DNA of 32,000 bases from an uncultured Alphaproteobacteria bacterium (GTDB lineage: Bacteria; Electryoneota; RPQS01), in assembly GCA_964406405.1 (NCBI GenBank), contig CAYORN010000003.1, forward strand, positions 146,689 through 178,688, given 5' to 3'. The notes below the pieces were generated by a model. That model was not told the origin of the DNA and did not search any database. It worked only from the letters and a program-made list of their open reading frames with translations. Position 1 is the first letter of the stretch; each line of letters opens with the position of its first letter. Position numbers and translations under genes: made by a program. Below are positions 5,795-21,667 of the stretch, piece by piece.

Positions 5795-8700
5795 CTATGG
5801 CCACAATTCTGCTAGGTCTCGTGGCACGACAGTTGCAAAGACATCTAAGCCATCCCCCTTCCCAACTATGAATGAAGACTCCAACGCACGATTAAGAGAT
5901 TCCCACAGCACCGTTTGTTCCGCACTCAATTTCCCCTTCGTTCGTTGCAAGATCGGCATCAGGCTCCAGCGGATATTGATGGCCGGAGCATAGAGGGGCT
6001 TGACCGCAAGTAGTGACAGCACTTGCCCGCTAAACAGATCGGCGGGCTCTCTGGCGAGAAAAGCCGTCAGAATTCTCAAGAGGAGAATGCGGCCGCTAAG
6101 CAGATCATGCGATGCCTGATTGAACTCCCAACCAGTCTTGAGCGCGGCTTTGGCCAAGTCATAATCTCCATTCATGAGTAACGCCGCACCAAGCGCTTGA
6201 TATCGGTGGGCCATTTTGTGGGAATTCAACGGAACCTCGAGTGACTGGTATCCGTTAGCTTCTTGAAACTCGTTGATGGCACGCGGATACTCGCTGGCAG
6301 AGAGCGAGTTCACCCCAATGTTACTTAAGTATAAAGCCATTCTCGAACTGTCCCGCCCGTAACACTCCTCCGCAGTCCGCCTAGCATCTTTCAGAATCTC
6401 GCGTGCAGCTACGATCTCTCCACGATCCTCGATTATCCGTGCGAGAATGATCAAGACAGTCGCCTCAATGGGGCGATTTCTTATGTCCCATCCCTTGGCG
6501 TATGAACAGGCATTCCGAATTAAAAGTTCTGCTTCCTCGTCCTCGTGTCGATTACGAAGCGCTTCGGCAAGTGTAGCAGTGTCTTGGCATACCGTCGGGT
6601 GTGATTCACCTAAGCGATTGCGGCCGGACATCACAGCGCGTCTGAACAAACTGATGGCGTCATCAAGACGGCACATATCTTGATAGACCAAACCAAGGTT
6701 GATCTGACTAAGCGCAATCTCGTCACTATCCTCAACAAAGAGCTCTTGCGCCCGTCGCAGTGCATTTTCTAAGACAGGCGCGGCGTCATCGAGACGGCAC
6801 GTTGCCCGATATAAGCAGCCCAAATTCGTCGCAGTTTCCCATTGCAACCGAGCATTGGCATCACTATTCTTACAAATACTCCGGATGGAGAGTAGATGTC
6901 GTTCTGCTGCTCCCATGTTTCCCAAATGCAGGTTGTTGACGGCGATAAGATTGTGACACGACGTCACCGGGACATTAGGTCCACTCCGATCTTCACTCAG
7001 CGCTCGCAGTGTATGAGATGCCATCTGCAAAGCACTACTGTATTGTCCTACTTGTGTGAGAGCGGAACTTGTCTTCAACGCAAGGGACTGACCGAACGGA
7101 CGATTGTGAGTTAATGAGTGCTTAGATGCAGCCACCAGCGATTCAAGTTCCCATTCTGGGAATCCAAATAGAATTGAAGTGTCACATAAGAGTGCGCGAT
7201 TTATCAAATAGGAACTCATACGATAACTTACCGATAGCGACTGCGACCGAGTCGCATCAAGAATAGTCTCTTGAACCATACGGTGCATGCGGGTCAGCCG
7301 GGGCGTGCGATGATCATCTTCGAAATCCCCGATTTGTAGCAGTCGAAGGCTCAATAGATTGTTGACTAACAGCAACCACGGATCCTCATAGCCAGGGGGA
7401 GCGTCTTGACCTAACTTAGGAAAGTCTTCAGTAACAAGTGTCCGTAACCATGGAAGCGGAATGCTGTCGGGTGGCAATAATGCGGCGTAAGACAGCGTAA
7501 GCAGCTCATCTTGCCCAAGTAGAGCAAGCGTTGGCGCCAAAGTAGCTGATATTAGTCTTTCGCCATGCCTGATGCCGGTCTTGGTTGCCCTGGCCATTCC
7601 CTCCAATCCGGGCAGCCCTTCACGTCGCAGCCGCTCAAGCAACGCGGAGCACGTGATACTTCCAGTGCGTTCGCCGAGATGAATGGCCACTACCTCGATA
7701 GCGAGGGTGAATCCTCCAAGAAGTGCAGCGATCTCAAATGCCGCTGTACGCTCGGTTTCATCCGAGAAGTGCTCGCCGGGTTGGTAGCTCTCAATGAGTC
7801 TCAAGGCGTCCGTAGGGGGCAGTTCGTCCACGCAAAGCAGCGCGTGTTGATTGGGATCAAGTCCAATGTCGTCGGCACCCAAACGTGTAGTGGCCAGTAC
7901 GCGTAACCAGTGTTTGCCGGTCAGGATATCGGATTGTGGCGGTTTGAGCAATTCAGGTGAATCTACGTTGTCGAGCATCAGCAAGACCATAGGTTCAGGT
8001 GGGTGCTTATCACCGGAATGCGTGTCAGCTCCTCGAATCGCGCGCCGTTCCAGTTCCGCTAAGATGCGTTTGGCAGATCGCAGATCGTCTTTCTTCTCAT
8101 CCTCTGTCAAAGTTACGCCCAAATCAGACTCGAGCTTACGAAGTGCGGAGAGCAGGCAGGATTCACCTGCGCAACCGATCAGCCAGCGGCCGCCGGGATA
8201 AAAGTCGGCGTAGGCGTATGCATACTGGATAGCAAGGGAAGTCTTCCCTAACCCACCCAGACCTTGGAGAGCTGTCACAATGCCGAACTTGCCCAAGCCA
8301 ACTGCTTCATGAAGACGCCTCATCTCATCTTCGCGTCCTACAAACCGGGGGTTATGTGCGGGCAAGTTGCCTTGTGCCGCCGTAATCCGACGTAATCTAG
8401 ATAGCTTGGTGTGAAGCGAGTGCTCAAGGTCTTCAAGTCTCTTGCGAACATCTAAGCGCCGGAGCGCACCAACGCCCTCACTGTACCACGGGCGAAGGTC
8501 AAAGTAATTCCGCCGTCGCACGCTCTTCATCCAAGCCGATGCGTGCTGGTCGAAGTCCGGCGCATTAAGGCCGGGAATCTCAACGAAATAGATCGGTGCA
8601 ACGCCCTGTCCCTGTGCGGCTCGTGATTGCTCATACTTGAGATACTCGACAACTTCCCATTCGCAGTAATTGCTCACAAGGTAGTTAGGAGACAGGATGA

Positions 8701-8905
8701 TTAGCAAGATGTTCGACTGACGGAGACCCTCGAGAATACGATGCCGCCAGTCGTCCATGCCGTCAATGTCTTCAATATCGAAGAAACAGCGGAGGTTCTC
8801 ACACGCAAATTCGCGGTAGTCAGCTTCGATCTGCTGCTTGAATTCTGTGATACGTCCCGTTGTGTTGTCGCGTCGCGAATAGGAAATAAAAAGGTCGTAC
8901 GCCAT
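5795..8905 (-). CDS. TIR - NB-ARC/STAND NTPase - TPR protein (bacterial TNL-like NLR)
   Basis: N-terminus YDLFISYSRRD...ILLIILSPNYLVSNYCEWEVVE is a TIR domain that keeps the conserved Glu region. FVGREDEMRRL...GLGGLGKTSLA is the P-loop (about 8240-8263). MVLLMLDNVD is Walker B. The C-terminal roughly 450 aa are TPR-like helical repeats. The track ORF starts at TTG 8932. I prefer ATG 8905, which has GAGGAG upstream. Confidence 0.9.
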   Translation of the reverse strand: MAYDLFISYSRRDNTTGRITEFKQQIEADYREFACENLRCFFDIEDIDGMDDWRHRILEGLRQSNILLIILSPNYLVSNYCEWEVVEYLKYEQSRAAQGQGVAPIYFVEIPGLNAPDFDQHASAWMKSVRRRNYFDLRPWYSEGVGALRRLDVRKRLEDLEHSLHTKLSRLRRITAAQGNLPAHNPRFVGREDEMRRLHEAVGLGKFGIVTALQGLGGLGKTSLAIQYAYAYADFYPGGRWLIGCAGESCLLSALRKLESDLGVTLTEDEKKDDLRSAKRILAELERRAIRGADTHSGDKHPPEPMVLLMLDNVDSPELLKPPQSDILTGKHWLRVLATTRLGADDIGLDPNQHALLCVDELPPTDALRLIESYQPGEHFSDETERTAAFEIAALLGGFTLAIEVVAIHLGERTGSITCSALLERLRREGLPGLEGMARATKTGIRHGERLISATLAPTLALLGQDELLTLSYAALLPPDSIPLPWLRTLVTEDFPKLGQDAPPGYEDPWLLLVNNLLSLRLLQIGDFEDDHRTPRLTRMHRMVQETILDATRSQSLSVSYRMSSYLINRALLCDTSILFGFPEWELESLVAASKHSLTHNRPFGQSLALKTSSALTQVGQYSSALQMASHTLRALSEDRSGPNVPVTSCHNLIAVNNLHLGNMGAAERHLLSIRSICKNSDANARLQWETATNLGCLYRATCRLDDAAPVLENALRRAQELFVEDSDEIALSQINLGLVYQDMCRLDDAISLFRRAVMSGRNRLGESHPTVCQDTATLAEALRNRHEDEEAELLIRNACSYAKGWDIRNRPIEATVLIILARIIEDRGEIVAAREILKDARRTAEECYGRDSSRMALYLSNIGVNSLSASEYPRAINEFQEANGYQSLEVPLNSHKMAHRYQALGAALLMNGDYDLAKAALKTGWEFNQASHDLLSGRILLLRILTAFLAREPADLFSGQVLSLLAVKPLYAPAINIRWSLMPILQRTKGKLSAEQTVLWESLNRALESSFIVGKGDGLDVFATVVPRDLAELWP

Positions 8906-9027
8906 TAAGGCAAGACTCCTCTTTGGAGACAACGCTAGCGTAGCGAAGTGAAGATCTTAAGCATCGGGAAATACCCGATGCGCGAGTCGAAGGATTATTC
9001 TGCAGTAACTAATGGCGGACAGCGCCT

Positions 9028-11667
9028 TCAAATCCCGAGCCTCTGCACTGAATAACCCGCCCGAGCAAGAATCTCAGGAATGCCCGCCACCAGATCCCGG
9101 TCGATCTGTTTGATGTTCTCGGGAAGCTCTTCCCATTCTACTAAAAACTCGTTCTGCTCTGAATTGTCCTTCGATGGCTTTCCCCGCGTAAAGCCTGTTA
9201 TGAGCTTGGCTTCCATCCATAGCGCGTGCTCTTGTCGCGCCATGGTCTCAACTTCGTTCATCGAGAACTTGTAGACCGACTGATCTCCACGGGCTGGCAT
9301 CATGACAAGACCAATGGCTGCCAGTTTCTGTGGAATGGATTGAACGTTAACGCGGTTCGACTCTTTGGCCCATTCAGGAAGCTGATTGTATGGAATCAGC
9401 AGCGGATTCGTTTTCTTTTCCTCGCTCTTTTCCTCGCCAAATATGAAACCGTCAAGGCGTTTGCTTTCACAATAAGCTTCATGGGCTGCTTCAGCCAGCT
9501 TTTCAAGGATCTCCGGTGTTAACATGATTGCTTGAACCAATGACAAAAATTCCATTCCATTGACGTGTAGATTCAATTGCGCTTCGCCGGGTAGACACGA
9601 TCGCTCGAACTGAGTCTTGCCAACAAGTTGACTCATGTCGATAATTGCTTCCATGGAGCGCGCGCCATGTTTGTACTCGCGGACGTGCAGAAAAGCGTTC
9701 AACACACCGGGATCAATATTCACAGTACGTCGCCCGCTCTTACTTGCGATGATCTGCGGTGTCAGCCGTTCAAACATAGAGCGGAGCAGAATGGCGCGGC
9801 GGGTCACGAAATACGGATCGGAAGACCCATCCATCCCGGTTGGATTCGGTCCCATGACTTGAATACAGCCCTTCAAGCGGCTGATAAAGTCCGGTCCCTT
9901 GACTTCACGGAACACATCGTGACTTGCCAAGGTCTTTCCGAATGACTCGAAGGACTCGCTGGTCCCTCCAGCAAACACGAAGATGGCCTGGCCGATCGGA
10001 TGAGTAGTCGGCCCCTGTTGAAAGGCCCCGTCCTGCATCGGAGCTAGAAAATAGCGTAGCCAACCCAATGGCTGTCCCTGAAAGGTCGTATCAAATTCAT
10101 CAAAGAACACCAGGGGAATGTATCCCAGAAGTGCTTCATCGCGGACCTGGTGGAAGGCATTGTGAAGAGCTTCTACGTCGTCAAACTGCGACAAGTTGAA
10201 TTCCAGCTTTTTGATGAGACCTGGAAAGATCGACTTGGCCATTTCGGTGACACCGAAGGACTTGCCCGATCCGGGAGCACCAAATACCGCTATCGATAGC
10301 GGCCGCTTCTGACGATCCTTACCACAATATTCCGTCATCAGTACACGGATGCTGTGATAGTTCTCGATTTCTCGACGGTCAATCGTGGTAAGATTTCCGA
10401 AACGTGCGATCGGCACATTCTTGAGGGTATCGCCTATGCCTTTCAGCACTATATTCCGTGCAATTGAACTTAATGCGCCGCGATTGACGTCATCAAGAAT
10501 AGTCCAGTATTGGTTCGGTGAGGAATTGCCGGCATCCTGCGAACGAATCATGAAGTGAGCCGGATCCGGAACTTTCACGGATGCAAACTCTTCCACGGAC
10601 TTCCCGATTTCGGCGGCGACTGCAGCGAGTGGGAACGCTAACTGGACATCAGAACTACCCGTCGTTCGATCTCCATACCCTTCCAGGTGCAGTCTGCGCA
10701 TCGCGGCGATACCGCTCTGAATTGCAGCTGATAGGTTCGGGCTGGCTGGCGATGTCATCAATTGATACACGATGCTTGCGGTCATGCACGTTTTGTACCC
10801 CACCATGCCGCCTGGGTATGTGCTCGACCACATGCCTTCCATGGTTTGCCCGTCGAAAAAGATCCGCACCTGTCTATTAGTCAGTAACGCGGCGCCGGCC
10901 GTTCCTATGGAGACGACAATATGAGCGCACTGGGCTAGCGAATTTATGCAGGGATTGTAAACGAGTTCCCAGGCGAGGTCTTGCACTGTCCGTTCCCACG
11001 ACAAGCCGCGACTGATTTGGACTTCTGTCCCTCGCAGATCGTCGATGTTCATGACGACAATTAGGCGATCTGCCCAATGCTGCTGCAAGAACTCCCACAA
11101 CTGTCCTTGCGCAACCGGGCGCGACATTTTCACGACAATCCAGGGGGATTTGCGTGCCGTATCTCGCTTCAAGTGTGACCAGAGTTCAGGATGGTCGCGG
11201 AAACCCAGATCGGCATCATCAAACACGATAATCTCTGCTTTGACTATGTCGGTCAGCGAGCGTTTGGCCAGTTCGACCCAGCCACCGTCACTTCGGTCCA
11301 ACCCGGCAAACTCAGATACCCGCCAGGCGAGCTGTTCTTTGCTTCCCTTGATGTCGTACGGGAACTGCTTCCACAGCGCATAGGAATGATGACACCGGCG
11401 GTCGGCAGGATTGACAAGAAGATCGGCATCAGCGAATTTTCGGATCTCGTACTTACTTGCCCGATTATCCTGGACCTGTTCGGCGAGTTCTTCGATCAAA
11501 TTCCCCAACAAAGCCGCACCACCGCGTTGCCGGCAGGCGCGCGTGCCCGCTTCCGCCGTCCAAGAGTGGCTGACGCTTTCGTTTCTCTGAAGCCGCGCAA
11601 TGTTCCAGTCAATCGTCAGGTCGCCAGAGACCACGACCACTTTCTTTGGTTCATCTATCGTATGCAA
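9028..11667 (-). CDS. Three-part protein: PfkB/ribokinase-like N-terminal domain (tentative) - classical AAA+ ATPase - two RyR domains
   Basis: TTG start at 11667 with AAGGAG (11674-11679) 6 nt upstream. N-terminal KKVVVVSGDLTIDW, RQRGGAALLGNLIEELA and HIVVSIGTAGAALL resemble PfkB-fold motifs, but the GAGD catalytic motif is absent. VFGAPGSGKS is Walker A (about 10258-10281). LVFFDEFD is Walker B. LAPMQDG and IFVFAGGTS are AAA-like. The C-terminus has two repeats of the RyR-domain pattern (AEAAHEAYCESKRLDGFIFGEEK...NPLLIPYNQLPEWAKESNR and ARQEHALWMEAKLITGFTRGK...FLVEWEELPENIKQIDRDLV). Confidence 0.85.
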   Translation of the reverse strand: MHTIDEPKKVVVVSGDLTIDWNIARLQRNESVSHSWTAEAGTRACRQRGGAALLGNLIEELAEQVQDNRASKYEIRKFADADLLVNPADRRCHHSYALWKQFPYDIKGSKEQLAWRVSEFAGLDRSDGGWVELAKRSLTDIVKAEIIVFDDADLGFRDHPELWSHLKRDTARKSPWIVVKMSRPVAQGQLWEFLQQHWADRLIVVMNIDDLRGTEVQISRGLSWERTVQDLAWELVYNPCINSLAQCAHIVVSIGTAGAALLTNRQVRIFFDGQTMEGMWSSTYPGGMVGYKTCMTASIVYQLMTSPASPNLSAAIQSGIAAMRRLHLEGYGDRTTGSSDVQLAFPLAAVAAEIGKSVEEFASVKVPDPAHFMIRSQDAGNSSPNQYWTILDDVNRGALSSIARNIVLKGIGDTLKNVPIARFGNLTTIDRREIENYHSIRVLMTEYCGKDRQKRPLSIAVFGAPGSGKSFGVTEMAKSIFPGLIKKLEFNLSQFDDVEALHNAFHQVRDEALLGYIPLVFFDEFDTTFQGQPLGWLRYFLAPMQDGAFQQGPTTHPIGQAIFVFAGGTSESFESFGKTLASHDVFREVKGPDFISRLKGCIQVMGPNPTGMDGSSDPYFVTRRAILLRSMFERLTPQIIASKSGRRTVNIDPGVLNAFLHVREYKHGARSMEAIIDMSQLVGKTQFERSCLPGEAQLNLHVNGMEFLSLVQAIMLTPEILEKLAEAAHEAYCESKRLDGFIFGEEKSEEKKTNPLLIPYNQLPEWAKESNRVNVQSIPQKLAAIGLVMMPARGDQSVYKFSMNEVETMARQEHALWMEAKLITGFTRGKPSKDNSEQNEFLVEWEELPENIKQIDRDLVAGIPEILARAGYSVQRLGI

Positions 11668-11796
11668 TTACTACTCCTTTCACGGGTGGGATTGATCAAG
11701 GTCAGGAATTAGTATTGGTCACGTTGGCGAATCCAAGCCCTCATCGCACCCTCGCGACAGATACGAACGATAAGGATCTTGCTTTTCAATGTTGTA

Positions 11797-14700
11797 TCAA
11801 GGTGTCTCGTTTCTCGATTTCACATGGTCGAGAATCTTCTTTGTCTCTTCGGCCAAACCGATCAACCCATGGTGTATCGCCATTTCATATGCAGACTCTG
11901 CGAGCTTCTGCGCCTCGCCGCCCTGGTTCCGCTCCATTAGTATCTCCGCCTGATTTCCCAAGCTAAACGTCAAACCCTCTGGATTCCCAAGTTCTTGGCA
12001 CAATCGCTCCTGTTCCTTTAGTAAAGTCATAGCGCCATCCAGATCGCCACGGGCATACAGGATCAACGCTTGATTTCCTAGGCAGCTCTGCAAACCGTCC
12101 TTGTTCGCCAAATCCCGGCAGAGCTGCTCCTCTTCCTCGTGCAGCGCCATCGCCCCGCTTAGATCGCCCCGGGTTCGAAGGATCTCTGACTGGTTGCCAA
12201 GGCTTCGCGACAGGCTGAGCTTGTCGCCGAGTTCCCGGCAGAGTCGCTCCTGGTCCTGGAGCAAAGCCATCGCGCTATCCAGTTCGCCACGCGCATATTG
12301 GATCAGCCCTTGATTGCCTAAGCATGCTTGCAGGCTATCGCGTTTGCCCAATTCTCGAAAGATTTTTTCATTCTCCCTGCATAACACCATCGCATCGTCC
12401 AGATTCCCCTGTCGCATGAGGATCAGCGCTTGATTTTCCAGACATGCCGAAAGTTCATACTTGTTGCCCAGTTCTCGGCATAGGTGCTCTGTCTCCTTCA
12501 ATAGTGCCACAGCAGCGTCCAAATCGTTCCACATCCAGAGGATCACCGCTTGATTTTTCAGGACCGCTAACAGGATATCCTTGTCGCCTGATTCCCTGCC
12601 GAAGCGCTCTTGCTCTCTAAGCGACGCCATTGCACCTTCCAGATCACCATGGATCAGAAGGATTATCGCTTGATTGCCTAGGATTCGCGACAGGCTGAGA
12701 TTATCGCCCGCTTCCCGACAGAGACACTCACTCTCCTTGTACAGGGTCATTGCTCCGTCCAGATCGCCCCGAGTTTGAAGGATCATCGCTTGATTGTTTA
12801 GACTTGCCTGAAGACTGTTCTTGTTGCCCACTTCCCGGCAGAGGCGTTCACTTTCCTTGTATAGTGCAATCGCCCTGTCAAGATCGTCTTGAGTCTGAAA
12901 GATCGCCGCTAGATTGACCAGGCATGCCGAAAGGTTAACTATATCATCGGTGCTCCGGAAATGCTCCACCAAATCGGCACGAAGTCTCAGCGCTTCGTCA
13001 ACATACCCTGCGTCTGCGAGAAGACTCGACACTGGAAGGAGATATGAAAAATGGGTGTCGGCCACGAGATCACCGTAGGCATTGGCCATTCGTAGAGTGG
13101 AATTCTCCTCAATTCGCGTCCAGTACGCCCTTACCTCCCACTGATTGTCTTTCCAAGCCACACTGAAGAACTCCAACTTTGCCAGCAGATCGTAAAGCCG
13201 ACTCCATTCCTTCGCTTCTGCAAGTTGCCATGGCAATTCTTCCACCTTGTGGTCGGTAAGTTCGCGATTCATGAAGTAGTCGGCAATCTTCAGGTGGATG
13301 GAACGTTCATGCACAGGAGTGGGCAGGTACGCGGCGCGCACGGCCTCGCGTAGGAAATCATGGAAAAATCCGAGCAAGCCGGATCTCGAGACCAGCGAAT
13401 CACTCGCTGCAAGATAAAGCGGTGACCAAGCCGCTCGTGGCAAAGGCTGCCCGTTGGATCCTAACATGTCCAGCAATTCAGACTCCGAAAGACCACGCCG
13501 CGCCGCCCAGAGAAGTGACATGACGTCGCCTACGAGATTGGTATCTCCTTCGTAGTCCTCTTCCCAGCGGGCCAAGATTTTTCCGTAAAGTTCCGGAACT
13601 GTGTTAGCCGCAAGGTAATACCCGATGCGTTCATCGAGCCGCTCATGCATTCCAAATACACGCAGCTCTTCGAGCAGTGCACGCAAATAGAGCGGATTGG
13701 CGGTTTGCTTCGCGTCGGCAATGCGCGTTGCTCGTTCAGGGCTAAGGGCCTTTGTGTATTGTGCCAGATACTTTAGAATGAATTCCTGGCGCTCGTCGGC
13801 ATTAAGAGGTTCGACCTTCATTACCGGCCAGTCGCGCTTCATTAAATCATCTAACGACCGACCCGGCAATGTGGATACCACAAGCCTGATGTTTGCCGGA
13901 ATCACCGGCGGCAACCAAACCAAGTCAGGTGCTTGATCGCGATCTTCCAATTGGTTCAAAGCATCCAGAATCAGAACCACCTTTCCCCGCGCTGCCGTCA
14001 TGTGCAGCCAGTTGGCAAACGCAGAGCGTAACTCGTCAGGCTTGTCGGGGATCTCCTGCGTGATTCCAAACCGCCGCTTGAACTCGCCCATGATCCGCCG
14101 CAACATGGCTGACCAGTCGGTGCTACTCGATGATGCGCCGACAAAGTGCAGGATTATCAGATCGTCGGGATGTTGTTTGCGATGATGTTCAGCCCAGTTC
14201 GCCAGCAACGCTGATTTGCCTGATCCGGATTCGCCCAGCACAATGAGCGACTGACCATCTCCGTCAGCATGTTCATCGAGGCGCTGAAAATACTTGTCTC
14301 CGCCAATGTATACGCGGCGGCGGCTATCCGCAAAGGCTTCATGCTCGGCCGCTTCACGATCCAGCGGATCCGTGATCGGGGCGTCCGGATACAGGTTATC
14401 AATGAGCGCCTGCATGTCCCGCAGCACCAACTGACCAAAGGCCTTCGGATCCGGGTAGTTCTCTGCGACCGAAAAGCACTTTTTGCGAATGCGTTGCTTC
14501 AGTGCGGCCAGCTTTTCGTGCCGCTCTGCGGAGCGCTGTTCTGCTTCATCGCGTCCCCATCGCGTGATCTCCTCTTCGGTCGGCGCGTCCCGAAACATCG
14601 CTTGCCTGTCCGCCGGCAGCATATCTATGTACCTCGCATCACGAAAATAGAAAAAGGCGTGTTCCGCCATTTCCGGGTTGAGTAGCACTCCATGCAGAAT

Positions 14701-15081
14701 CTCAAGTTCGGTGACCGAGTGATTGTGGTGTTCCGCCAACCATTTTTCCTGCTCAATCAATTCTGCCGAAATCTTCTCGGGTATCCACCCGTATCGTTCC
14801 CCCAGGACACCGATGAAATACGGCCGGCAACGCTTGATCTCTTCCAGGCAAATGGGCAACACCTTGCCTTCGGCCTTCTGCTCGTCGGTCACACCCCAGC
14901 GCAGATCTACTTCACCCCAGGTTACCTGCCGTTGCTCGCAAAGCTTTCGCAGTTCAGGGAATACAAATTTGACTAATTCATCGCGCTCCGCGTACATATC
15001 CGCAAACGTGGACGACACAAAGACGCGGACGACGCGTTCGGTACTACCTGTCTGGGATCTTGGATGTTGTATGGCTGTCAT
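11797..15081 (-). CDS. DUF4062-like N-terminal domain - STAND P-loop NTPase - TPR array
   Basis: VRVFVSSTFADMYAERDEL...PYFIGVLGERYGWIP matches the DUF4062 pattern. LIVLGESGSGKSALLANW is the P-loop (about 14212-14235). VVLILDALNQLED is Walker B. The C-terminus carries nine very regular 40-aa TPR-like units. Confidence 0.9.
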   Translation of the reverse strand: MTAIQHPRSQTGSTERVVRVFVSSTFADMYAERDELVKFVFPELRKLCEQRQVTWGEVDLRWGVTDEQKAEGKVLPICLEEIKRCRPYFIGVLGERYGWIPEKISAELIEQEKWLAEHHNHSVTELEILHGVLLNPEMAEHAFFYFRDARYIDMLPADRQAMFRDAPTEEEITRWGRDEAEQRSAERHEKLAALKQRIRKKCFSVAENYPDPKAFGQLVLRDMQALIDNLYPDAPITDPLDREAAEHEAFADSRRRVYIGGDKYFQRLDEHADGDGQSLIVLGESGSGKSALLANWAEHHRKQHPDDLIILHFVGASSSSTDWSAMLRRIMGEFKRRFGITQEIPDKPDELRSAFANWLHMTAARGKVVLILDALNQLEDRDQAPDLVWLPPVIPANIRLVVSTLPGRSLDDLMKRDWPVMKVEPLNADERQEFILKYLAQYTKALSPERATRIADAKQTANPLYLRALLEELRVFGMHERLDERIGYYLAANTVPELYGKILARWEEDYEGDTNLVGDVMSLLWAARRGLSESELLDMLGSNGQPLPRAAWSPLYLAASDSLVSRSGLLGFFHDFLREAVRAAYLPTPVHERSIHLKIADYFMNRELTDHKVEELPWQLAEAKEWSRLYDLLAKLEFFSVAWKDNQWEVRAYWTRIEENSTLRMANAYGDLVADTHFSYLLPVSSLLADAGYVDEALRLRADLVEHFRSTDDIVNLSACLVNLAAIFQTQDDLDRAIALYKESERLCREVGNKNSLQASLNNQAMILQTRGDLDGAMTLYKESECLCREAGDNLSLSRILGNQAIILLIHGDLEGAMASLREQERFGRESGDKDILLAVLKNQAVILWMWNDLDAAVALLKETEHLCRELGNKYELSACLENQALILMRQGNLDDAMVLCRENEKIFRELGKRDSLQACLGNQGLIQYARGELDSAMALLQDQERLCRELGDKLSLSRSLGNQSEILRTRGDLSGAMALHEEEEQLCRDLANKDGLQSCLGNQALILYARGDLDGAMTLLKEQERLCQELGNPEGLTFSLGNQAEILMERNQGGEAQKLAESAYEMAIHHGLIGLAEETKKILDHVKSRNETP
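11884..12963 (-). repeat. Nine tandem 120-nt (40-aa) coding repeats in the TPR array of the STAND protein
   Basis: Units start at 12963, 12843, 12723 ... 12003 on the minus strand. The consensus is roughly LCRELG[DN]K.SL...LGNQA.IL..RGDLDGAM.L.KE.ER. Confidence 0.8.
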
Positions 15082-15094: not shown

Positions 15095-16789
15095 TCACGC
15101 CGGCTGTTTCACGTTTAAGAACCTTACCAGCCCGCGCCAGTCCTGGGATTCGGTCAGCACGATATTGTCTACCCGGCGCACGATGCTTTCGAACTCCTCA
15201 ACCGATGCCGTTTCGACGGTAGAAGCGATCGCCTGCAATTGGTCCGACATGTCTTCACTTCGGGCAGCCAACCGTTCATACTCCCGATGGCTGCGGAACC
15301 AAATAATGGCTGCACCCAGCGAAGGCAGGATTAGGGCGGAGAGAACGGCGAACCTCCCCAAGTAATCAACACTAGGCCACAAGATGAAGCTGAAGATATG
15401 CGCCAAAGCAGCGAGCATCGTCGCATAGAAGAGGGTGCTGCCGATAACCTCAAACCGACGATCGAGAATTGTGCGCTCGTCGGCACGCTTGAGATGCCAT
15501 CGTCGTTGGTCGCGCACCCAGACATTGGCAATGAACGCGCGCTTGGCGTCGAGTTCAGTGCCCAAAGCTGGTGGCGGGGTGTTCAATTTGCGGATGATAC
15601 AATTGAATACGCAGGCCGTCCAATCGCACCTCGCTTCAAAACCTGTTAATGCTGTGTCCTGTTTCAGCGGCGACGGTGAAACCCCTACGGCCAGAAGAAA
15701 GGATGCAGCACGAAGCCGCTCGGCGAGAAAGCGCAGCAATATCCATTGGCTATGATGGCCTTTCCTGTGAGATCGTGCTACCAACAGTAAGATTCCAACC
15801 AGGGCCATTGCCTCGAGCGTGAAGAACGCAATGTCCCAACTCGCAACCATAGCACCGAGGGCAACAAACACGATGGCAGCCATCGCGAGCACATAAACTA
15901 AGATGCCGGTCAGTCGATATGAACGTTGGTTTCGTTTGGCGATGGCTGAGGCGATAGCGTAGGCAGGTACGAGCTTTTGTTCCACCTCTTGAATCGATGC
16001 CGCGTTCAGGCCACCCGCTTTGGCCGGATTAAACGGGTTTGTCCACTCAAGTGACCCAGCATGTTCTGGACTGCCCTGATTGTACGACGTCACAAACGTT
16101 TTCATGGCAACATGGCCCGTGCGGTCGTAGCGGCGAAGCCGGTAACGGCGGATCGGGTAGTCACCTCTACTTACGTCAATGAGGTATGTAGGTACGCCAA
16201 GGTCATGTGCAAGATCCAGGATATCTCGTGTGCCGCCGAGTTGACCTGCCCGATGGGGATCGTACAGGGCGATCAGGAAATCGCAATGCCGAAGCACGTA
16301 CTCCCCTGCTTCCCGATACGCGGCATGCCGTAAGTCTCGTTGCTCCTGAGGAGTCTTGGCATCTGCAGCAATGAGACGACCCCGCAAGTAGATCGTAGAT
16401 GTGGGGTCTTTGGGCAGAAAAGCATCGAACTCTCGGCGCGACTCCTCGACAGCATTTAGACGTAGTGGTGCCCCGCGTGCATCCAGCCCAAAGGTGTTTT
16501 CGTAATCCGCTCTCGTCAAGGGAATAACAGCCATTAAGCTTGCATCAGTGTTCCTCAGTACTTCATGCGCAACAATCCGATCGGCACCATCGGCAAGACA
16601 CGAAACCACCTCCCATTGCAAGTGAACTGTCTGTTCAGGATCAATGAGCTTTTGAATGTCCTTGAGTACCGCTCGCACCTGATCGACGAGCTCTTTGTTC
16701 GCGACCAAATCTCGATGCCCTGTGACGCCGACGCGAACTCGAAAGTGAAAACGGCAATCGGGACTGTCATTCTCTTGTGCATCAGACAT
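15095..16789 (-). CDS. SLOG (LOG-like Rossmannoid) domain fused to a SLATT-like 4-TM module (predicted ligand-gated membrane effector)
   Basis: VGVTGHRDL...SCLADGADRIVAHEVL...AYREAGEYVLRHCDFLIALYD...LGGTRDILDLAHDLGVPTYLI is a SLOG/YpsA-like pattern (about 16160-16747). Two hydrophobic hairpins follow (LTGILVYVLAMAAIVFVALGAMV / IAFFTLEAMALVGILLLVA and IGSTLFYATMLAALAHIFSFIL / FAVLSALILPSLGAAIIWF, about 15290-15922). Each hairpin is followed by an amphipathic helix. The track ORF starts at GTG 16834. I prefer ATG 16789, which has AGGAG 8 nt upstream. The stop lies 13 nt before the STAND gene start. Confidence 0.8.
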   Translation of the reverse strand: MSDAQENDSPDCRFHFRVRVGVTGHRDLVANKELVDQVRAVLKDIQKLIDPEQTVHLQWEVVSCLADGADRIVAHEVLRNTDASLMAVIPLTRADYENTFGLDARGAPLRLNAVEESRREFDAFLPKDPTSTIYLRGRLIAADAKTPQEQRDLRHAAYREAGEYVLRHCDFLIALYDPHRAGQLGGTRDILDLAHDLGVPTYLIDVSRGDYPIRRYRLRRYDRTGHVAMKTFVTSYNQGSPEHAGSLEWTNPFNPAKAGGLNAASIQEVEQKLVPAYAIASAIAKRNQRSYRLTGILVYVLAMAAIVFVALGAMVASWDIAFFTLEAMALVGILLLVARSHRKGHHSQWILLRFLAERLRAASFLLAVGVSPSPLKQDTALTGFEARCDWTACVFNCIIRKLNTPPPALGTELDAKRAFIANVWVRDQRRWHLKRADERTILDRRFEVIGSTLFYATMLAALAHIFSFILWPSVDYLGRFAVLSALILPSLGAAIIWFRSHREYERLAARSEDMSDQLQAIASTVETASVEEFESIVRRVDNIVLTESQDWRGLVRFLNVKQPA

Positions 16790-17102
16790 TTGGATCGCTC
16801 CTGTAATTGATGCGTCTCTCTCGAGAACAGTCACCTGTTCGTAACTTGTGAATCTTGATGGTGTCAGTGCTTCATTGTCAATTCTGGGGAAATGCGCTTG
16901 TTCGACATCTTACGACTCCGGTACCTTCGGACCTACCTGACGCAAGATCCGTTCGTCCCACTTGTGATTTACTGGCCATCCCGTAAAACGGATCAATCTG
17001 GTGACTAACCAGTAGCTCTACCTGACAGGCAGTAGTGAGGCGCACCTGTCGTCCTCGCTTCGAAAGTGTACGCAAAGACGTGTAATCTCTCGACGCGGAT
17101 AC

Positions 17103-18176
17103 TTACTTCCCAAAATGCGGCAGAATGCTATCATTGAAATGGAGCTTGGCCTTGAGCTCCGGCGGAGGTGCCACTCTTTCGGATGAAGGAAGGGGAAAGG
17201 GATCAATGTAATCAATCCCCCGTAACTTGAGTGCGAGGCGCCACTCTCTGTCAACCCACTTCGATCGACTAGCTGCTTCTGACCAGAACAGATAGAAAAC
17301 GTCCTGCCGAGGTATCATTTTGAAGAGGACTTCTTCGTAGTGGTCCCCCGATCGCAGACTGAGGACGTCCAAGAACACATTGACGCCCGCCTTCTCCAAT
17401 CCGTGGACCCTTGCCAACACTGCTTCTTGGTCTTCATGTGCATAGGAAGCAAATGCCGAGTGATACCTTTTGTCCCTCACTCGCAACTGTCGCGTATAAA
17501 TAGTCGGTCGGGATCTGATCTTAAGTGCGAAATCAACGCGCGCAATTTCAAGTCCGTTCACATAGAATTGCGCAACTCCGTGTCGGCTTCCACGCTTACA
17601 GTATTTAGGTACGGTGAGCGCAAATGTCGTCTTGCCGCTCTTCCCGTCCCAGACCAAAGGCTTGGCAGGTGGCTCGACGCTCACGCCCTCTATGCGCACA
17701 CTAACATAGAGCACAGCGCCGCGCAGAACACGGGCAGGGCCCTGTGTTATGATTAGCGGCTGCCCACGCACTTCATTGTGTACCATCTCCATCACCTGCG
17801 CACGATATTTCCGAAGGTAGGCCCAGATACTCAGCACGTGCACACCACCCGGCATCAGCACGGAAGGTGTAATTACAGCGAGATGAACGTCGTCAGTAAG
17901 CCGTCCCATACTCGTTTCCGGATGTGAAGCATTATCTCCAACATCGAGTTGGTCGTATGGCTGAGACTCGGTTTTCAGGCCGCCGGCTGTCGAAGTTGCT
18001 TCCGTTGTCGGTTTTGGAGTGGAACGTGAGCGTTTAGCGGGTTTCTCCGCCGATGGTCGAGATTCACGGTCCTTATCGCCATTCTCTTTAGACTTGACCA
18101 TTCCGAGTCCGTTAGCGGGAAACAAGAAGCCGATCAAACGGAAAAGCAGCGATAAGAGTTTCCATAAAGTCCCCAT
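17103..18176 (-). CDS. Membrane-anchored TIR-domain protein (N-terminal hydrophobic anchor, K/S/T/P linker, beta-rich middle domain, C-terminal TIR)
   Basis: AGGAG lies 7 nt upstream of ATG 18176. The N-terminus is LWKLLSLLFRLIGFLFPANGLG followed by a highly basic linker. The C-terminus YHSAFASYAHEDQ...VFLDVLSLRSGD...DVFYLFWSEAASRSKWVDREWRLAL is a TIR_2-like pattern that keeps the conserved Glu. Confidence 0.85.
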   Translation of the reverse strand: MGTLWKLLSLLFRLIGFLFPANGLGMVKSKENGDKDRESRPSAEKPAKRSRSTPKPTTEATSTAGGLKTESQPYDQLDVGDNASHPETSMGRLTDDVHLAVITPSVLMPGGVHVLSIWAYLRKYRAQVMEMVHNEVRGQPLIITQGPARVLRGAVLYVSVRIEGVSVEPPAKPLVWDGKSGKTTFALTVPKYCKRGSRHGVAQFYVNGLEIARVDFALKIRSRPTIYTRQLRVRDKRYHSAFASYAHEDQEAVLARVHGLEKAGVNVFLDVLSLRSGDHYEEVLFKMIPRQDVFYLFWSEAASRSKWVDREWRLALKLRGIDYIDPFPLPSSERVAPPPELKAKLHFNDSILPHFGK

Positions 18177-18659: not shown

Positions 18660-19755
18660 TCACACGTCATCATCGCTGTGAATTTTGTCGCGAATAATGG
18701 CAATGATTGTCTCGAGGTGTCGACGCAGTTCCTCCAAATCATCTGTGTACCTGAATATGCTTTCTGTCCGGAAGTCGAACGGCACAGGCGGCATTGTTCC
18801 ATCATCGGCAGTCCGTCGGAGAAGAATCACAGGTTTGTTTTCAGCATGAGCCATTCCCAGTTCATACATGACGTTAGGGCGATCGCCTGTGGTGTCGGCA
18901 ATTGCTGAAAAAACAGTGCCGTAATCCATCGCGGATTGCTCCCACGACATTGCCTGTTGGTACAACTCGGTCGGTTCGCACCGGGTGCAGTCCGTGGGCG
19001 GCAAGAGCTGGGACGATCGCGTTGTCATATACCGGATCACTGGCTTCTTGAAACGGCATAATTATGAAGCAACTTCTCGTGAAACCTCGCAACAAGCAGC
19101 TACAGACGCGTTTTGCCAGCGCACGAATTTCTGTGTCGCACAGATCCGCGAGCCGAAGCTGTTCGAAGTCGGTGGCTTCAGTATCGGTGATTTCAAACCA
19201 ACTGCAGATTTCGGATCGAACATCCCTCCACGCTTCAGCCGATGAACCACCGCCAAATGGCAAGGGTAGGATAGGGCGCTCTATCGCAAGTGCGACATCC
19301 AGCACGGACCGTGTGCCATGCTCGCCTTCAACCGAGATCACAACATCCGCGGAATGAACCATGCTGAAGCGGCGTGCCTGGGGGGTACGGTGTGAAAGCA
19401 CTTGGATACGACCTTCGTGAAAGCGAACGAGCTTGCTGAAGTCCTTTTCCCGGTCAGGCAGAACAGTCTCAACGCGTTCCTCGGCGGGTATTCCGCTCGA
19501 ACGCAGACCTTCCAGAACTCCGTCAATGATCGTCCAGTCCGCCGTTGGGTGATTGGGCGAGTCAAGCCTCGCTTTCAAGCCACCAGTAACAACAATGAGA
19601 CCGTCTTCAGCGGCCAAGAGTTTTCCGAGTTCCTTCCAGAGAAGGGCGGCATTCACTGACAGGCGACTGTCACCGCTAACAAACAGACGACGGGGATGGA
19701 TTATGGCCTTTATTATGGCGATGATCTTAGTCTGGTGAATGTCGACATTCGCACG
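18660..19755 (-). pseudogene. Decayed SLOG/LOG-like + nucleoside 2-deoxyribosyltransferase-like (TIR-related) fusion gene
   Basis: Track ORFs 18874..19656 and 18660..19040 are two frames of one gene. Frame A has LIVVTGG...RRFSMVHSADVVISVEGEHGTRSVLDVALAIERPILPLPFGGG (LOG/SLOG) and then CFIIMPFQEASDPVYDNAIVPALAAHGLHPVRTD. Frame B continues with VFSAIADTTGDRPNVMYELGMAHAENKPVILL. Removing one base from the A6 run at 18908-18913 joins the two frames (..GLRHCFSAIADTTG..). The frame is also open upstream to 19755 and encodes RRLFVSGDSRLS, the expected first strand, but that stretch has no ATG, GTG or TTG. Confidence 0.7.
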
Positions 19756-19793
19756 TTACCGCAAGTCACAGTCCGGCATTTGCGGGTGTCGCC

Positions 19794-19821
19794 GTCATCT
19801 TCTCTATGCTGGTGATGAATG
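19794..19821 (-). repeat. Dispersed copy A of the island leader motif (consensus TTCATCACCATCATAGCGAAGATGAC on the minus strand)
   Basis: The minus strand reads cattcatcaccagcatagagaagatgac. It lies about 135-165 nt upstream of the SLOG/NDT-like gene. Confidence 0.7.
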
Positions 19822-19897
19822 TGGGTACGCAAATGCACCACCAGAGTCGCTCTTAGCGATCCAAAGCACACTGTGCCGAGCGTGCCGACTAAACACG

Positions 19898-20899
19898 CTA
19901 CGGCCACGCAAGTCTGTCTAGCCAATGCAGAGAGTCGAGAACATCTTCGATAACTGTACCACTGAGACGTTCGAGAACATCCCGTTCCGGCTTCACGTCG
20001 TCAACCGCGTGTTGTCGTGAGCCTGCAACTATCCTGTTATCCACGGAATCGTACAGGCAGAAACCAAGTTCAGCTTTCGCCAAGACCAATGTGGACGTCC
20101 GCTCCGTCTTCGTTTGCGCTGCACCGAACAGAATTCTCCTTACTTTTAGACGTCTCGCAAGCTGAAGTAAAGATTGAGTATCCGCTTTGGCAGATATCAC
20201 ATCCCCGACTTCGCGTCGCTCCGCTTCAATCGTGGTCGGGATGAAGACTCGGTAGCGCTGGCTTCGCAACGCTACACTCCAACCCAATTCCACCGTTCCT
20301 GTCGGGTCATTAGACAGAACCGCAATTGTCCCCCGATCCATGAGAAACTCCCGATAGTAGATCAAGCCCCCGATACCGAGAATGACAACAACGAACAACA
20401 TCGAAACTGCGTTGATAAGCCATTTTCTGACATGGCGTTTCTTGTCAATCCGCTCATCGATTGAACTACTGGATTGCGCTGCGGGGGAAATGCCCAGCTG
20501 TTCTAAGCCTTGTACAATGCGCGGCAGGACTACATCCATGCCTGCCGGTGGAATCGGCAGTGACGTTGACAGCACGAGAGCTTGTCTCCATTCAGGTCTC
20601 CTTTGCTTTAGCTCCTTATACGTCACACCATGAAGCAATGGAATGAAGGGCTTTCCTTCTTCGTAAGCGCGAACGACTTCCGCCGTCACCTGCTGCGAAA
20701 CCAGAGAATGCTCTGAGACGATGAGCACAACTGCTCGAGATTCGTCTATCGATTTTCCAATCTGTACAAGGTAGACTTCCCCCGGCACGTTGTCGCGCTG
20801 GTAATACCACGTCGTGTAGCCGGTCCCCTCAAGTCCCGAGGCAACAACTTGCGCCAATTTGAGGTCAGGCTCACTGTAACTAATGAAGATGTCACACAT
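19898..20899 (-). CDS. TIR - single TM - C-terminal extracytoplasmic domain protein
   Basis: CDIFISYSEPD...AVVLIVSEHSLVSQQVTAEVVRAYEEGKPFIPLL is a TIR_2-like pattern. WLINAVSMLFVVVILGIGGLIYY is the TM segment. It is followed by a roughly 145-aa domain I cannot assign. The start is 2 nt after the stop of the upstream small ORF. Confidence 0.85.
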   Translation of the reverse strand: MCDIFISYSEPDLKLAQVVASGLEGTGYTTWYYQRDNVPGEVYLVQIGKSIDESRAVVLIVSEHSLVSQQVTAEVVRAYEEGKPFIPLLHGVTYKELKQRRPEWRQALVLSTSLPIPPAGMDVVLPRIVQGLEQLGISPAAQSSSSIDERIDKKRHVRKWLINAVSMLFVVVILGIGGLIYYREFLMDRGTIAVLSNDPTGTVELGWSVALRSQRYRVFIPTTIEAERREVGDVISAKADTQSLLQLARRLKVRRILFGAAQTKTERTSTLVLAKAELGFCLYDSVDNRIVAGSRQHAVDDVKPERDVLERLSGTVIEDVLDSLHWLDRLAWP

Positions 20900-20901
20900 G
20901 A

Positions 20902-21087
20902 TTACTCGATGGCCGTGCTTTCTCGACTGCGAAGGATATGATCTCGTCCGGGCTGTAGATCGTCAGACCTATTGGCACACATTCCACAGTGGTTTGGTGG
21001 ACAGATGACGGTGGGCGTCCGATAGCGACATGCAATCTCTGACACCATAATAATGCGTTGCCGCATCGTCGCCGCGCCTACGGTCAT
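20902..21087 (-). CDS. Possible small Cys-containing protein (about 61 aa); may instead be a non-coding leader
   Basis: This is the lower part of track ORF 20902..21288, whose upper part overlaps the preceding gene. From ATG 21087 it reads MTVGAATMRQRIIMVSEIACRYRTPTVICPPNHCGMCANRSDD... The stop is 2 nt before the TIR-TM start, which suggests coupling. There is no clear RBS, and the start lies inside motif copy B. Confidence 0.3.
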   Translation of the reverse strand: MTVGAATMRQRIIMVSEIACRYRTPTVICPPNHCGMCANRSDDLQPGRDHILRSRESTAIE

Positions 21088-21109
21088 CTTCGCTACGATA
21101 GTGATGAGA
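21083..21109 (-). repeat. Dispersed copy B of the island leader motif
   Basis: The minus strand reads tctcatcactatcgtagcgaagatgac. Similarity to the tandem units extends upstream (gcctacgg). Confidence 0.7.
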
Positions 21110-21175
21110 GTAGACTGCATGCGAATAGTTAACGGAGGCTTCGCATGCTGCGCCCTGCCTGCTTCTGAATGTCGG

Positions 21176-21667
21176 TTACTTGTCCGCAGCAGACGGGTGC
21201 GTAAGTTCGAAAACGCTGAAACAATGGGTAGCGTAGGCGGCCACATCGGCATGCCCCCGCTTGCCAAGAACGTCGCAAATCGTGTCATGCATCACATGCA
21301 GTGGAAAGGGCATCTCCAAGAAGCTGTCGAACCCAGCAAGCCGAACTGTTTCTGGGAGATCTTTCGCCACGAAACCGGAGTACGCGATCATCGCGATGCG
21401 AGAATCACGGTTACGGATTGATGTTCCTATTTCGACGCCGCGCTTCTGTATTCCAAACATGCATGTTGTCAGCAAAACTGGCGGTCCATCTTTAGCATAG
21501 TAATCGAGGGCATCGGCCACCGTGCTTGCAGTCGTTGTTTTGAATCCGTGTGCGTTCAGAAAGTTGACCATCAGGTCGCGGAGAACGCTGTCACAATCAA
21601 CGCACAACGCTCGGTAACGTGGAATCGCAGGATCTCCGTTAAGCGAATGCCGATCATTCAAACCCAC
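21176..21667 (-). CDS. Stand-alone degenerate (pseudo-)receiver domain protein
   Basis: The layout is CheY-like: ALCVDCDSVLRDLMVNFLNAHGF..TVADALDYY..PPVLLTTCMFG...IAMIAYSG...AGFDSFLEMPF. The phospho-acceptor Asp position reads Thr (LLTTC) and the conserved Lys reads Met (LEMPF). GTG start at 21667. Confidence 0.6.
   Translation of the reverse strand: MGLNDRHSLNGDPAIPRYRALCVDCDSVLRDLMVNFLNAHGFKTTTASTVADALDYYAKDGPPVLLTTCMFGIQKRGVEIGTSIRNRDSRIAMIAYSGFVAKDLPETVRLAGFDSFLEMPFPLHVMHDTICDVLGKRGHADVAAYATHCFSVFELTHPSAADK

Follow-up and report, generated by a model that had tools for sequence, protein, structure and literature searches.

A tRNA-Lys island whose TIR, STAND, RyR and SLOG-SLATT genes suggest an undescribed relative of Thoeris-type antiviral signalling

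Introduction

In type I Thoeris antiviral systems the SLOG domain of ThsA binds the cyclic ADP-ribose (cADPR) isomer 3'cADPR, and in plants TNL proteins signal in trans to helper pathways. Both precedents are relevant to the subject of this paper, a cluster of seven same-strand genes, here called A to G, that spans 5795-20899 of a 32,000-nucleotide stretch of bacterial DNA (the window; contig CAYORN010000003.1 of assembly GCA_964406405.1, from an uncultured bacterium). Side by side in the cluster lie genes for two STAND NTPases headed by a TIR or a DUF4062 domain (A and C), a large protein with PfkB-like, AAA+-like and ryanodine-receptor (RyR) domains (B), a protein joining a SLOG-like domain to SLATT-type transmembrane (TM) units (D), two small TIR proteins (E and G), and what appears to be a decayed SLOG gene (F).

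Thoeris types I-XI were defined in a survey of December 2025 (10.64898/2025.12.03.692087). Type III has several TIRs with a SLOG effector, type VII pairs a TIR with the SLATT effector ThsH and uses canonical cADPR as its signal, and type VIII combines an NDT-like CMP hydrolase with TPR; RyR-domain proteins, DUF4062 and TrkA go unmentioned in the survey, and animal ryanodine-receptor channels appear in its Discussion as cADPR targets (10.64898/2025.12.03.692087). RyR domains have been described in viral proteins of the PF02026/Repeat12 (R12) family, which bind 2'cADPR, 3'cADPR and cADPR with nanomolar affinity or cleave the 2' and 3' isomers, and whose ligand residues His/Trp/His/Asp are common to animal R12 (PMC13232231; 10.64898/2026.06.04.730250). 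Both of these 2026 preprints cover viral proteins alone (PMC13232231; 10.64898/2026.06.04.730250), and in a literature search outside which key older nucleotide-signalling papers lay, we found nothing linking host RyR proteins with TIR, SLOG or STAND genes.

We compare the window with related loci from many phyla. To the following reading we give slightly better than even chances: the island that carries A-G is one instance of a widespread, unnamed gene neighbourhood, with B and a SLOG protein as its core and with TIR/DUF4062-STAND and small TIR proteins as partners, that works in a Thoeris-like manner.

Results

Linkage of the genes across phyla

A D-centred scan of 185,579 species-representative genomes gave 80 loci (L007-L086), which their record titles place in many phylum-level lineages, and a B-centred scan of metagenome contigs gave another 80 (L087-L166); the contexts of F homologs came from five loci (L167, L168, L169, L173 and L174). 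The frequency of partner genes falls steeply with distance. Around D homologs, open reading frames (ORFs) with TIR domains number 30.7 per 100 kb within 500 bp and 0-0.5 at 6-10 kb, and RyR ORFs 33.3 and 0; around B homologs, SLOG ORFs number 51.3 per 100 kb within 500 bp and about 1 further out. B and SLOG genes are operonic, same-strand pairs being separated by at most 35 nt in 40/44 cases (several overlap by 4 nt) and ordered B then SLOG in 40/44. Twelve B loci have 4 kb or more of sequence on either side, and in all 12 a TIR or DUF4062 gene lies no further than 8 kb away. Over the 160 loci, the set B, SLOG and TIR is found 18 times, B, DUF4062 and SLOG eight times, and all four together six times.

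The arrangement of the parts varies. L024 (Flavobacteriales) reads D-B-A-C, contiguously; L133, L144 and L166 have sets similar to A-D of the window; L087, L089 and L090 read NACHT-B-D; and L007 (Ignavibacteriota) reads B-TIR-D-C, parts that L062 holds too. TIR-NBARC-TPR genes like A adjoin B or D homologs in L021, L024, L133 and L144, and DUF4062-NACHT genes directly adjoin B or SLOG genes in, for example, L089, L090, L096, L136, L141, L153, L166 and L024. The large TIR neighbours are TIR-WD40, TIR-NB-ARC-WD40 and TIR-NBARC-TPR proteins. The SLOG partner takes two forms, one a SLOG-SLATT protein like D, the other a short SLOG protein of ~190 aa, after which a protein of ~600 aa is encoded that has two TM helices at its N-terminus together with TrkA_N and RyR domains. 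Pfam searches of 100 unlabelled same-strand neighbours found no further dominant partner family (TrkA_N 6, WD40 3, patatin 3). TIR/DUF4062-STAND, PfkB-AAA-RyR and SLOG(-SLATT) proteins form a neighbourhood conserved across phyla, of which the window island is a rich example. At least A-D belong to one network and are not unrelated neighbours, and A-G probably all do.

Might the island nevertheless be a defence island in which independent systems have come to rest? The original prediction held that the locus is probably several adjacent systems, and one can picture A and C as autonomous STAND receptors with NAD-depleting TIR or DUF4062 heads, B and D as a two-gene module, and G, F and E as a decayed Thoeris-like module. 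TIR-STAND (Avs) and NACHT (bNACHT) proteins are indeed established single-gene defences (as cited in 10.64898/2025.12.03.692087). There are 23 loci with B and SLOG but no detected TIR or DUF4062 gene and 23 with B alone, most such contigs being short; the intergenic gaps in the window are 13-129 nt within D-C-B-A and 314-484 nt around E and F; and TIR density is still 3.6-7.5 per 100 kb at 2-10 kb from B, as in defence islands. Yet a B and D pair alone would be left without a signal-generating enzyme, and the TIR or DUF4062 gene found at every long-flank B locus speaks against such a module. DUF4062-NACHT genes abut B or SLOG on the same strand at no fewer than 10 loci in different phyla, F-family genes lie 22-51 nt after B-like or TIR-NACHT genes, and the four-part set recurs in other orders (L024, L133, L144), which is typical of functional linkage. 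The recurrence of the same component classes together across 160 loci and many phyla is at odds with the notion of several adjacent systems, and neighbourhoods lacking conserved linkage, which the original prediction had named as counter-evidence to its own view of the locus, were not what we saw: linkage is strong. Weakened by the distance-decay and adjacency data, the explanation by independent systems appears to us unlikely, and remains the main rival to a single network.

Two groups of proteins at these loci are recorded here for their domain make-up. Genes for the 2TM-TrkA_N-RyR proteins (~600-700 aa; L111:3488-5272, L128:13297-15150, L014:7862-9757, L031:11795-13879) directly follow short SLOG genes, themselves downstream of B homologs; the proteins resemble membrane channels or pores, and no K+ selectivity-filter motif was seen in them. 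Beside D homologs are ~810-aa proteins with RelA_SpoT, TPR, LSDAT_prok (SLOG) and RyR domains (L015:11407-13829, L020:5910-8405, L003:12060-14471), in which an alarmone-synthetase-like head is joined to the same sensor domains.

Gene B

B is probably the central and most conserved component of the network. At 90% identity the family comprises no fewer than 2075 clusters, with sources that include Acidobacteriota, Aminicenantes and a Thorarchaeota metagenome-assembled genome; the best 120 are 49-59% identical over the full length, and mean column identity is 65% (alignment A2). A search with the PfkB-like domain by itself found 1682 representatives (50% clustering), and for 445 the match was at E<=1e-30. 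Among 2.9 million viral contigs (IMG/VR) there was one partial match, and the B family is cellular, not viral. Databases label its members just 'RyR domain-containing protein' or 'ATPase', and B has no match at all in NCBIfam release 20 (r20). For an island-borne gene the family is unusually conserved. On one metagenomic contig (L161:627-6384), two B paralogs of 945 and 927 aa are convergent.

Pfam finds two RyR repeats at the C-terminus of B (76.2 bits, cut-off 27.4). The B-family profile matched R12 of RyR2 in the PDB at E 1e-27, and an AlphaFold2 (AF2) model built on a 25-sequence alignment (predicted local distance difference test, pLDDT, 76.7) and compared with the PDB by Foldseek matched R12 of RyR3 at E ~4e-8; B falls within the PF02026 R12 fold, and its RyR region is a bona fide R12 domain. 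Residues ~1-370 of the model matched HldA, PfkB, ribokinase and adenosine kinase (E 3e-8 to 1e-6; target TM-score ~0.5-0.55), and the modelled N-terminal domain has the ribokinase fold. By sequence, aa 1-440 gave no Pfam match even at E<=10, and neither PfkB/ribokinase membership nor a catalytic GAGD was found. What we take, mapping by eye, to be the GAGD site reads GGMVGY (285-291), Tyr standing for the expected Asp. In the ATPase region the AAA match is below cut-off (19.1 against 21.2 bits), and the family shows no variation in Walker A (GAPGSGKS, residue 463) or Walker B (VFFDEFD, residue 520). B had been described as a classical AAA+ protein with RyR domains; the RyR domains and the Walker motifs bear this out, the AAA assignment is sub-threshold, and the PfkB-like domain had been passed over.

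What does B do? In RyR repeat 2, H814, W817 and D856 have the +3/+42 spacing, with N839 in place of the second His, of the ligand residues H75/W78/D117 and H129/W132/D171 in the viral RyR papers; the comparison with RyDEP was made by the spacing of published residues, read from the sequence and not by alignment. We propose that B is a receptor or switch for an ADP-ribose (ADPR)-derived signal; its exact part may be that of a switch, a co-effector or a brake. As a brake, B would be a host RyR sponge or glycosidase, like phage RyDEP, that clears basal cADPR-type signal and sets the threshold of the SLOG effector. The only prokaryote-associated RyR proteins so far characterised sequester or hydrolyse cADPR isomers (PMC13232231; 10.64898/2026.06.04.730250), repeat 2 has His and Asp at the spacing of the RyDEP dyad, and B directly precedes the SLOG gene, as would a regulator expressed together with it. 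His/Trp/Asp are, however, reported to be conserved across the whole R12 family, non-catalytic binders included (PMC13232231), and are therefore no sign of catalysis in B; and 880 aa with an invariant P-loop ATPase, a PfkB-like domain and such column identity are far beyond the needs of a sponge. We regard a brake as distinctly improbable. The conservation of B suggests that its target is a conserved small molecule or host target, not phage proteins; the arms race would fall to the variable TPR/WD40 sensors.

Genes D and F, the SLOG partners

D is a putative ligand-gated pore effector. Pfam recognises SLATT_1 (29.6 bits) and DUF4231 in it, the generic SLATT_1 domain model of NCBIfam matches at 46.4 bits (cut-off 41), and the AF2 model has a pLDDT of 86. 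The family has at least 298 relatives, and the GVTGHR, GADR and GGT motifs of its N-terminal domain are invariant in the family alignment (A1). That domain aligned with the F-family SLOG domain in hhalign (E 3e-5, probability 73%, 148 columns). No Pfam match was obtained for aa 1-250 even at E<=10; against the PDB, the whole model gave nothing significant in Foldseek, where long TM helices dominated the matches, and the D-family sequence profile gave no match. The closest relative of D (49% identity) is followed by a RelA_SpoT+RyR protein, and a relative of 30% identity is set among three TIR genes and a SLATT gene.

F, by contrast with its listing as a gene at 18660-19755 in the original prediction, reads as a pseudogene. 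There is a 1-nt insertion within TGTTTTTTCAGC (18906-18913), and ATA stands at 19711-19713 where homologs have their ATG start; intact homologs are single ORFs of 345-355 aa, 55-70% identical over 95-99% of the reconstructed F (alignment A3). The same sequence is present in independently assembled Logan contigs. A sequencing error was considered for the frameshift and is unlikely, given its identity in separately assembled contigs, for which shared reads are possible, and the second lesion. The LDcluster4 SLOG domain of F scores 27.2 bits (cut-off 26.3), and the NDT-like domain 17.2 in Pfam (cut-off 28.8); PADLOC calls the NDT-like part 'Effector TIR' at E 1.9e-6, and some F homologs are called TIR_2 instead.

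The F family belongs to the same network as B and the TIR-STAND genes. In L174, genes for a DUF4062-NACHT-TPR protein, a TPR protein and a B-like protein of 963 aa are followed 22 nt downstream by F; L173 reads DUF4062-NACHT-TPR, TIR-NACHT-TPR, F, TIR and, further on, DUF4062-NACHT; a TIR-NACHT gene is directly upstream of F in L167, and two TIR genes are directly downstream in L169. L168 has no adjacent TIR gene, and one TIR-domain gene ~6 kb off on the opposite strand. Since the N-terminal domain of D aligns with the SLOG of F, the window would hold two alternative SLOG partners of B, D intact and F decayed. At L168:3176-11553, a 957-aa PFK (phosphofructokinase)-domain protein and a 650-aa protein precede the F homolog and TCAD9/TPR-S follows it; the PFK domain is another sugar-kinase-like domain in the network.

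TIR and STAND genes

A, E and G, like Thoeris TIR proteins, have TIR domains with the catalytic glutamate. Pfam TIR_2 is above cut-off in all three (48.6 bits in A; Table 1), in agreement with the prediction of three canonical TIR domains, and the Glu of the catalytic column, the most conserved column of the TIR profile, is kept in each (E84 in A, E311 in E, E74 in G). A and C, predicted to be STAND NTPases with TPR arrays, are such: in both a P-loop NTPase precedes a repeat array. In A the P-loop GLGGLGKT is intact, TPR_12 is found, AAA_16 is below cut-off at 24 bits, and NCBIfam FxSxx_TPR matches in part (134 bits, cut-off 300); A is a putative sensor and signal generator. In C, also with an intact P-loop, Pfam finds DUF4062 (53.3 bits), NACHT (41.1 bits, cut-off 26.7) and TPR, and C is a putative second sensor. 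Within C, six DNA repeats at 120-nt spacing (12059-12887; 61-72% identity) are the 40-aa TPR units of its sensor array. We presume DUF4062 to be a TIR-like domain; in hhalign, DUF4062 did not match TIR alignments built from the loci at a significant level, the first beta-strand alone being aligned in a shallow alignment (effective number of sequences, Neff, 2.8).

Small TIR proteins often flank D homologs, and E and G are generic examples. Pfam, even at E<=10, recognised nothing in the middle of E or in the C-terminal part of G; among 170 related loci, neither that part of G nor the N-terminal part of E had any relative. Hydrophobic helices are strong in D (four), G has one, and E is possibly membrane-associated.

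The earlier domain inventory is essentially right, with corrections. Where it listed two further TIR/NDT-like domains, DUF4062 is present in C, its link to TIR was not recovered, and the NDT-like domain of F falls below the Pfam cut-off; its two SLOG domains come to one in F above cut-off and one in D by one hhalign match; and among the three proteins that it placed at the membrane, D and G are clear and E is suggestive at most. It overlooked the tRNA-Lys borders of the island described below, the decay of F and the PfkB-like domain of B.

The island

Table 1. Features of the island and of gene cluster A-G. Positions are those of the window; aa, amino acids.
Feature	Position	Strand	Description	Basis
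Left island border, attL-like	3442..3496		55-nt direct repeat of the tRNA-Lys 3' part	
Gene A	5795..8905	-	TIR (aa 1-145; 8471-8905), P-loop STAND NTPase (aa ~185-560), TPR array (aa ~600-1036)	
Gene B	9028..11667	-	Ribokinase/PfkB-like (aa 1-370; 10558-11667), AAA+-like P-loop ATPase (aa ~445-690; 9598-10335)	
Gene B, C-terminus	9031-9570	-	Tandem RyR Repeat12 domain (aa 700-879)	
Gene C	11797..15081	-	DUF4062 (aa 17-150), NACHT (aa 250-600), TPR array (aa 680-1080)	Pfam
Gene D	15095..16789	-	SLOG-like Rossmannoid domain (aa 14-225; motifs GVTGHR, GADR, GGT), two SLATT-type 2TM units (aa 260-560)	
Gene E	17103..18176	-	Hydrophobic N-terminus, low-complexity linker, beta-rich region, C-terminal TIR (aa 236-357)	Pfam TIR_2 52.3 bits
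Gene F, apparent pseudogene	18660..19713	-	SLOG (LDcluster4), TIR/NDT-like domain	
Gene G	19898..20899	-	N-terminal TIR (aa 1-135), one TM helix (aa 162-184), C-terminal domain	Pfam TIR_2 64.8 bits
25-nt motif TCATCACCATCATAGCGAAGATGAC	19794-19818, 21083-21107, 22048-22072	- (19794-19818 copy)	Upstream of F, G and the PspC gene	
Receiver protein, stand-alone	21176..21667	-	Response_reg	Pfam Response_reg 33.4 bits
PspC-domain membrane protein	21738..22052	-	PspC	Pfam PspC 85.8 bits
tRNA-Lys(CTT)	22318..22391	-	tRNA	ARAGORN; Rfam tRNA 71.9 bits
Right island border	22311-22365		Covers the 3' part of tRNA-Lys	

An 18.9-kb island that has integrated at tRNA-Lys carries the gene cluster as its cargo (Table 1). 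We assign the whole cluster to the island because the tRNA-Lys repeats form its borders and the GC content inside is lower: the two repeats are identical at 54/55 positions and lie 18.9 kb apart, and GC is 0.50-0.55 between them and 0.58-0.62 outside. Direct repeats of a tRNA 3' end flanking DNA of atypical composition make it a member of the tRNA-integrated islands, and the flanking genes are housekeeping genes (Hdr/FlpD-like, sigma-54 activator, histidine kinase, AcrB). Domain searches of the island ORFs found no recombinase or integrase, so the island may no longer move, or may be mobilised in trans. Over 3458-22340 the window is 100% identical to Logan contigs of two sequencing runs. That Logan contigs end exactly at the 55-nt repeat was considered as a sign of strain heterogeneity and rejected, a repeat longer than the assembly k-mer breaking contigs anyway.

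The run of minus-strand genes extends from 5795 to 22052, and the genes named in the original prediction lie at the positions given there. Between the tRNA and the TIR genes, the receiver and PspC proteins have no homologs among the 170 related loci. The motif TCATCACCATCATAGCGAAGATGAC has three matches at <=2 mismatches against 0 expected (100 shuffles), and may be a shared regulatory site, an operator or promoter element. There are weaker copies at 21703, 21966 and 22130, and the copies near PspC lie inside 82-nt tandem units (21963-22126). One copy of the motif falls in a 128-aa ORF (20902-21288) located between G and the receiver gene; this ORF has no family match in Pfam or PHROGs and is probably non-coding upstream DNA of G. 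At the other end of the island, five small plus-strand ORFs (93-149 aa, 3607-5720), convergent with the cluster, have no Pfam or PHROGs match; two of them (4497-4841 and 4861-5223) share a 105-nt repeat of 78% identity and are paralog-like. Because scans for sigma-70 promoters and terminators did no better than shuffles, they do not set operon limits.

Could the genes serve no immune function at all, and form instead a housekeeping or stress circuit of nucleotide signalling, for ion homeostasis or envelope stress, built from TIR, SLOG and RyR modules? One would think of such a circuit on seeing the PspC and receiver genes in the island, with an upstream motif in common with G and F, the 2TM-TrkA_N-RyR and RelA_SpoT-RyR partners, and a B protein that, at 50-59% identity across phyla, is unusually conserved for a defence gene. 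The cluster, on the other hand, sits on a horizontally acquired tRNA island of deviating GC, its occurrence is patchy and its gene order shuffled, its partners are hypervariable STAND/TPR/WD40 sensors, SLATT and patatin, and one component is seemingly a pseudogene, each a hallmark of conflict systems. A non-immune circuit seems to us very improbable.

Searches for named systems

The genes were searched against PADLOC-DB v2.0.0 and NCBIfam r20. The original prediction that the layout matches no named system holds in both: no PADLOC or NCBIfam defence-system model was matched at threshold. PADLOC gave weak TIR-level matches alone, and nothing for B, D or the SLOG part of F; A matched PDC-S66 and ThsB at TIR level only, C matched a generic TPR model and mad8 (E 0.0034), and neither matched the Avs/AVAST or TIR-NLR models. 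NCBIfam gave no defence-system model at cut-off for any gene. Its Thoeris type III models were unmatched, E scoring 25.9 bits against ThcB4 (cut-off 220) and D and an F homolog (P0242) giving no match. For the STALD-type SLOG of type I ThsA (PF18185), D gave no match and the F homolog E 0.022 (14.7 bits, cut-off 24). A CD-NTase/SMODS cyclase, as in CBASS, was found in none of the island ORFs.

Discussion

The linkage of these genes is a matter of observation across the loci; their mechanism we infer. A Thoeris-like mechanism is the most likely, because viral RyR domains bind TIR-made cADPR isomers. The STAND repeat arrays of A and C would recognise an invader, and NTP-dependent oligomerisation would gather the N-terminal TIR, and possibly DUF4062, heads, which would then use NAD+ to make a signal, ADP-ribose in a cyclic or some other modified form. 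This signal would be bound by B through its RyR domain and by D through its SLOG domain, the SLATT pore of D would open, and membrane depolarisation would bring about abortive infection, the cell being killed or arrested. B would act as an ATP-driven switch or co-effector, licensing or amplifying the SLOG effector.

Several points weigh against the Thoeris-like scheme. TIR-STAND proteins such as Avs are known to work on their own, their TIR being the NADase effector. TIRs in Avs/STAND proteins were set aside on purpose in the Thoeris survey (10.64898/2025.12.03.692087). In the window, B and D are not adjacent, C lying between them; a D-type SLOG gene is present at 38/80 B loci, many of these being on short contigs; and distant B homologs (32-37% identity) on plasmids of cultured bacteria stand alone, and were set aside as uninformative on context. 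The SLOG call of D depends on a single profile-profile match (E 3e-5, 73%), Pfam and Foldseek being empty, and since hhalign did not tie DUF4062 to TIR, a signal-making role of C is an assumption. Lastly, the neighbours at the related loci were six-frame ORFs labelled by home-made iterative hidden Markov models seeded from window domains, with a Pfam spot-check on 10 proteins.

A further possibility, which we advance tentatively and with clearly less confidence than the Thoeris-like scheme itself, is that host R12 domains are the native prokaryotic receptors for TIR-made cADPR messengers. The B family and the 2TM-TrkA_N-RyR proteins would then be effectors of a large and so far unrecognised branch of TIR immunity, STAND-fused TIR and DUF4062 heads would signal in trans like plant TNLs, and the animal cADPR-RyR axis would descend from this branch or converge on it. 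If so, the RyR R12 domain would be a new receptor domain, and B a new and very abundant effector family, in TIR-based bacterial immunity, and STAND-fused TIRs could generate signal for separate effectors, the logic of plant TNLs. Phage RyR sponges and glycosidases would be explained, and may be copies of the host's own receptor. There would also be a testable prokaryotic root for the control of ryanodine receptors by cADPR, an old open question in animal physiology. A-D form a compact four-gene block (5795-16834), and the hypothesis of a host RyR-cADPR receptor is directly testable.

How does the locus compare with the systems already described? It shares with Thoeris the presence of catalytic-Glu TIRs beside a separate protein that would join a putative SLOG sensor with a SLATT pore, the multiplicity of TIR genes and the setting in a defence island. 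It differs in that two of its TIR-type heads form part of STAND NTPase-TPR proteins, receptors of a class left out of the Thoeris survey, in that D, the putative effector, would have SLOG and SLATT on one chain, and in that the most conserved component is an 880-aa PfkB-like/AAA+/RyR protein absent from the survey's text and supplements. Of the Thoeris types, VII, III and I seem nearest. As to type VII, D has SLATT and TIR genes are adjacent; compared by description, the SLOG-like N-terminal domain of D is an addition not described for ThsH. With RyDEP and RyR Tad proteins (PF02026), B has in common the R12 fold and family, the His/Trp/Asp spacing in repeat 2 and a link, putative for B, to TIR-made cADPR isomers; the viral proteins are small and defeat immunity as sponges or glycosidases, whereas B is large and cellular, a multi-domain ATPase whose gene neighbours TIR and SLOG genes. 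CBASS and SLATT-SLOG systems likewise have a SLATT 2TM pore, predicted to open on a nucleotide messenger, and a SLOG sensor, and differ in their CD-NTase/SMODS, in whose place the candidate signal makers here are TIR or DUF4062. With the animal cADPR-ryanodine receptor axis the likeness is a cADPR-family product of a TIR (or cyclase) together with an R12 domain, and in some loci the 2TM-TrkA_N-RyR proteins; homology does not extend beyond the R12 repeat, there being neither Ca2+ channel architecture nor a selectivity-filter motif, and an evolutionary link is speculative.

Finally, A and C share with Avs/AVAST, bNACHT, TIR-NLR and plant TNL/TNP receptors the tripartite plan of a head, a P-loop NTPase and a C-terminal TPR sensor array, and the TIR-NTPase-TPR order of A is that of plant TNP-like proteins. 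They differ from those receptors in recurring with separate RyR and SLOG-SLATT proteins, and this recurrent encoding suggests signalling in trans and not autonomous NAD depletion. The locus is unnamed and probably undescribed, and its gene set suggests a relative of Thoeris-type antiviral signalling in which STAND receptors, an R12-bearing ATPase and a SLOG-SLATT protein may act together.

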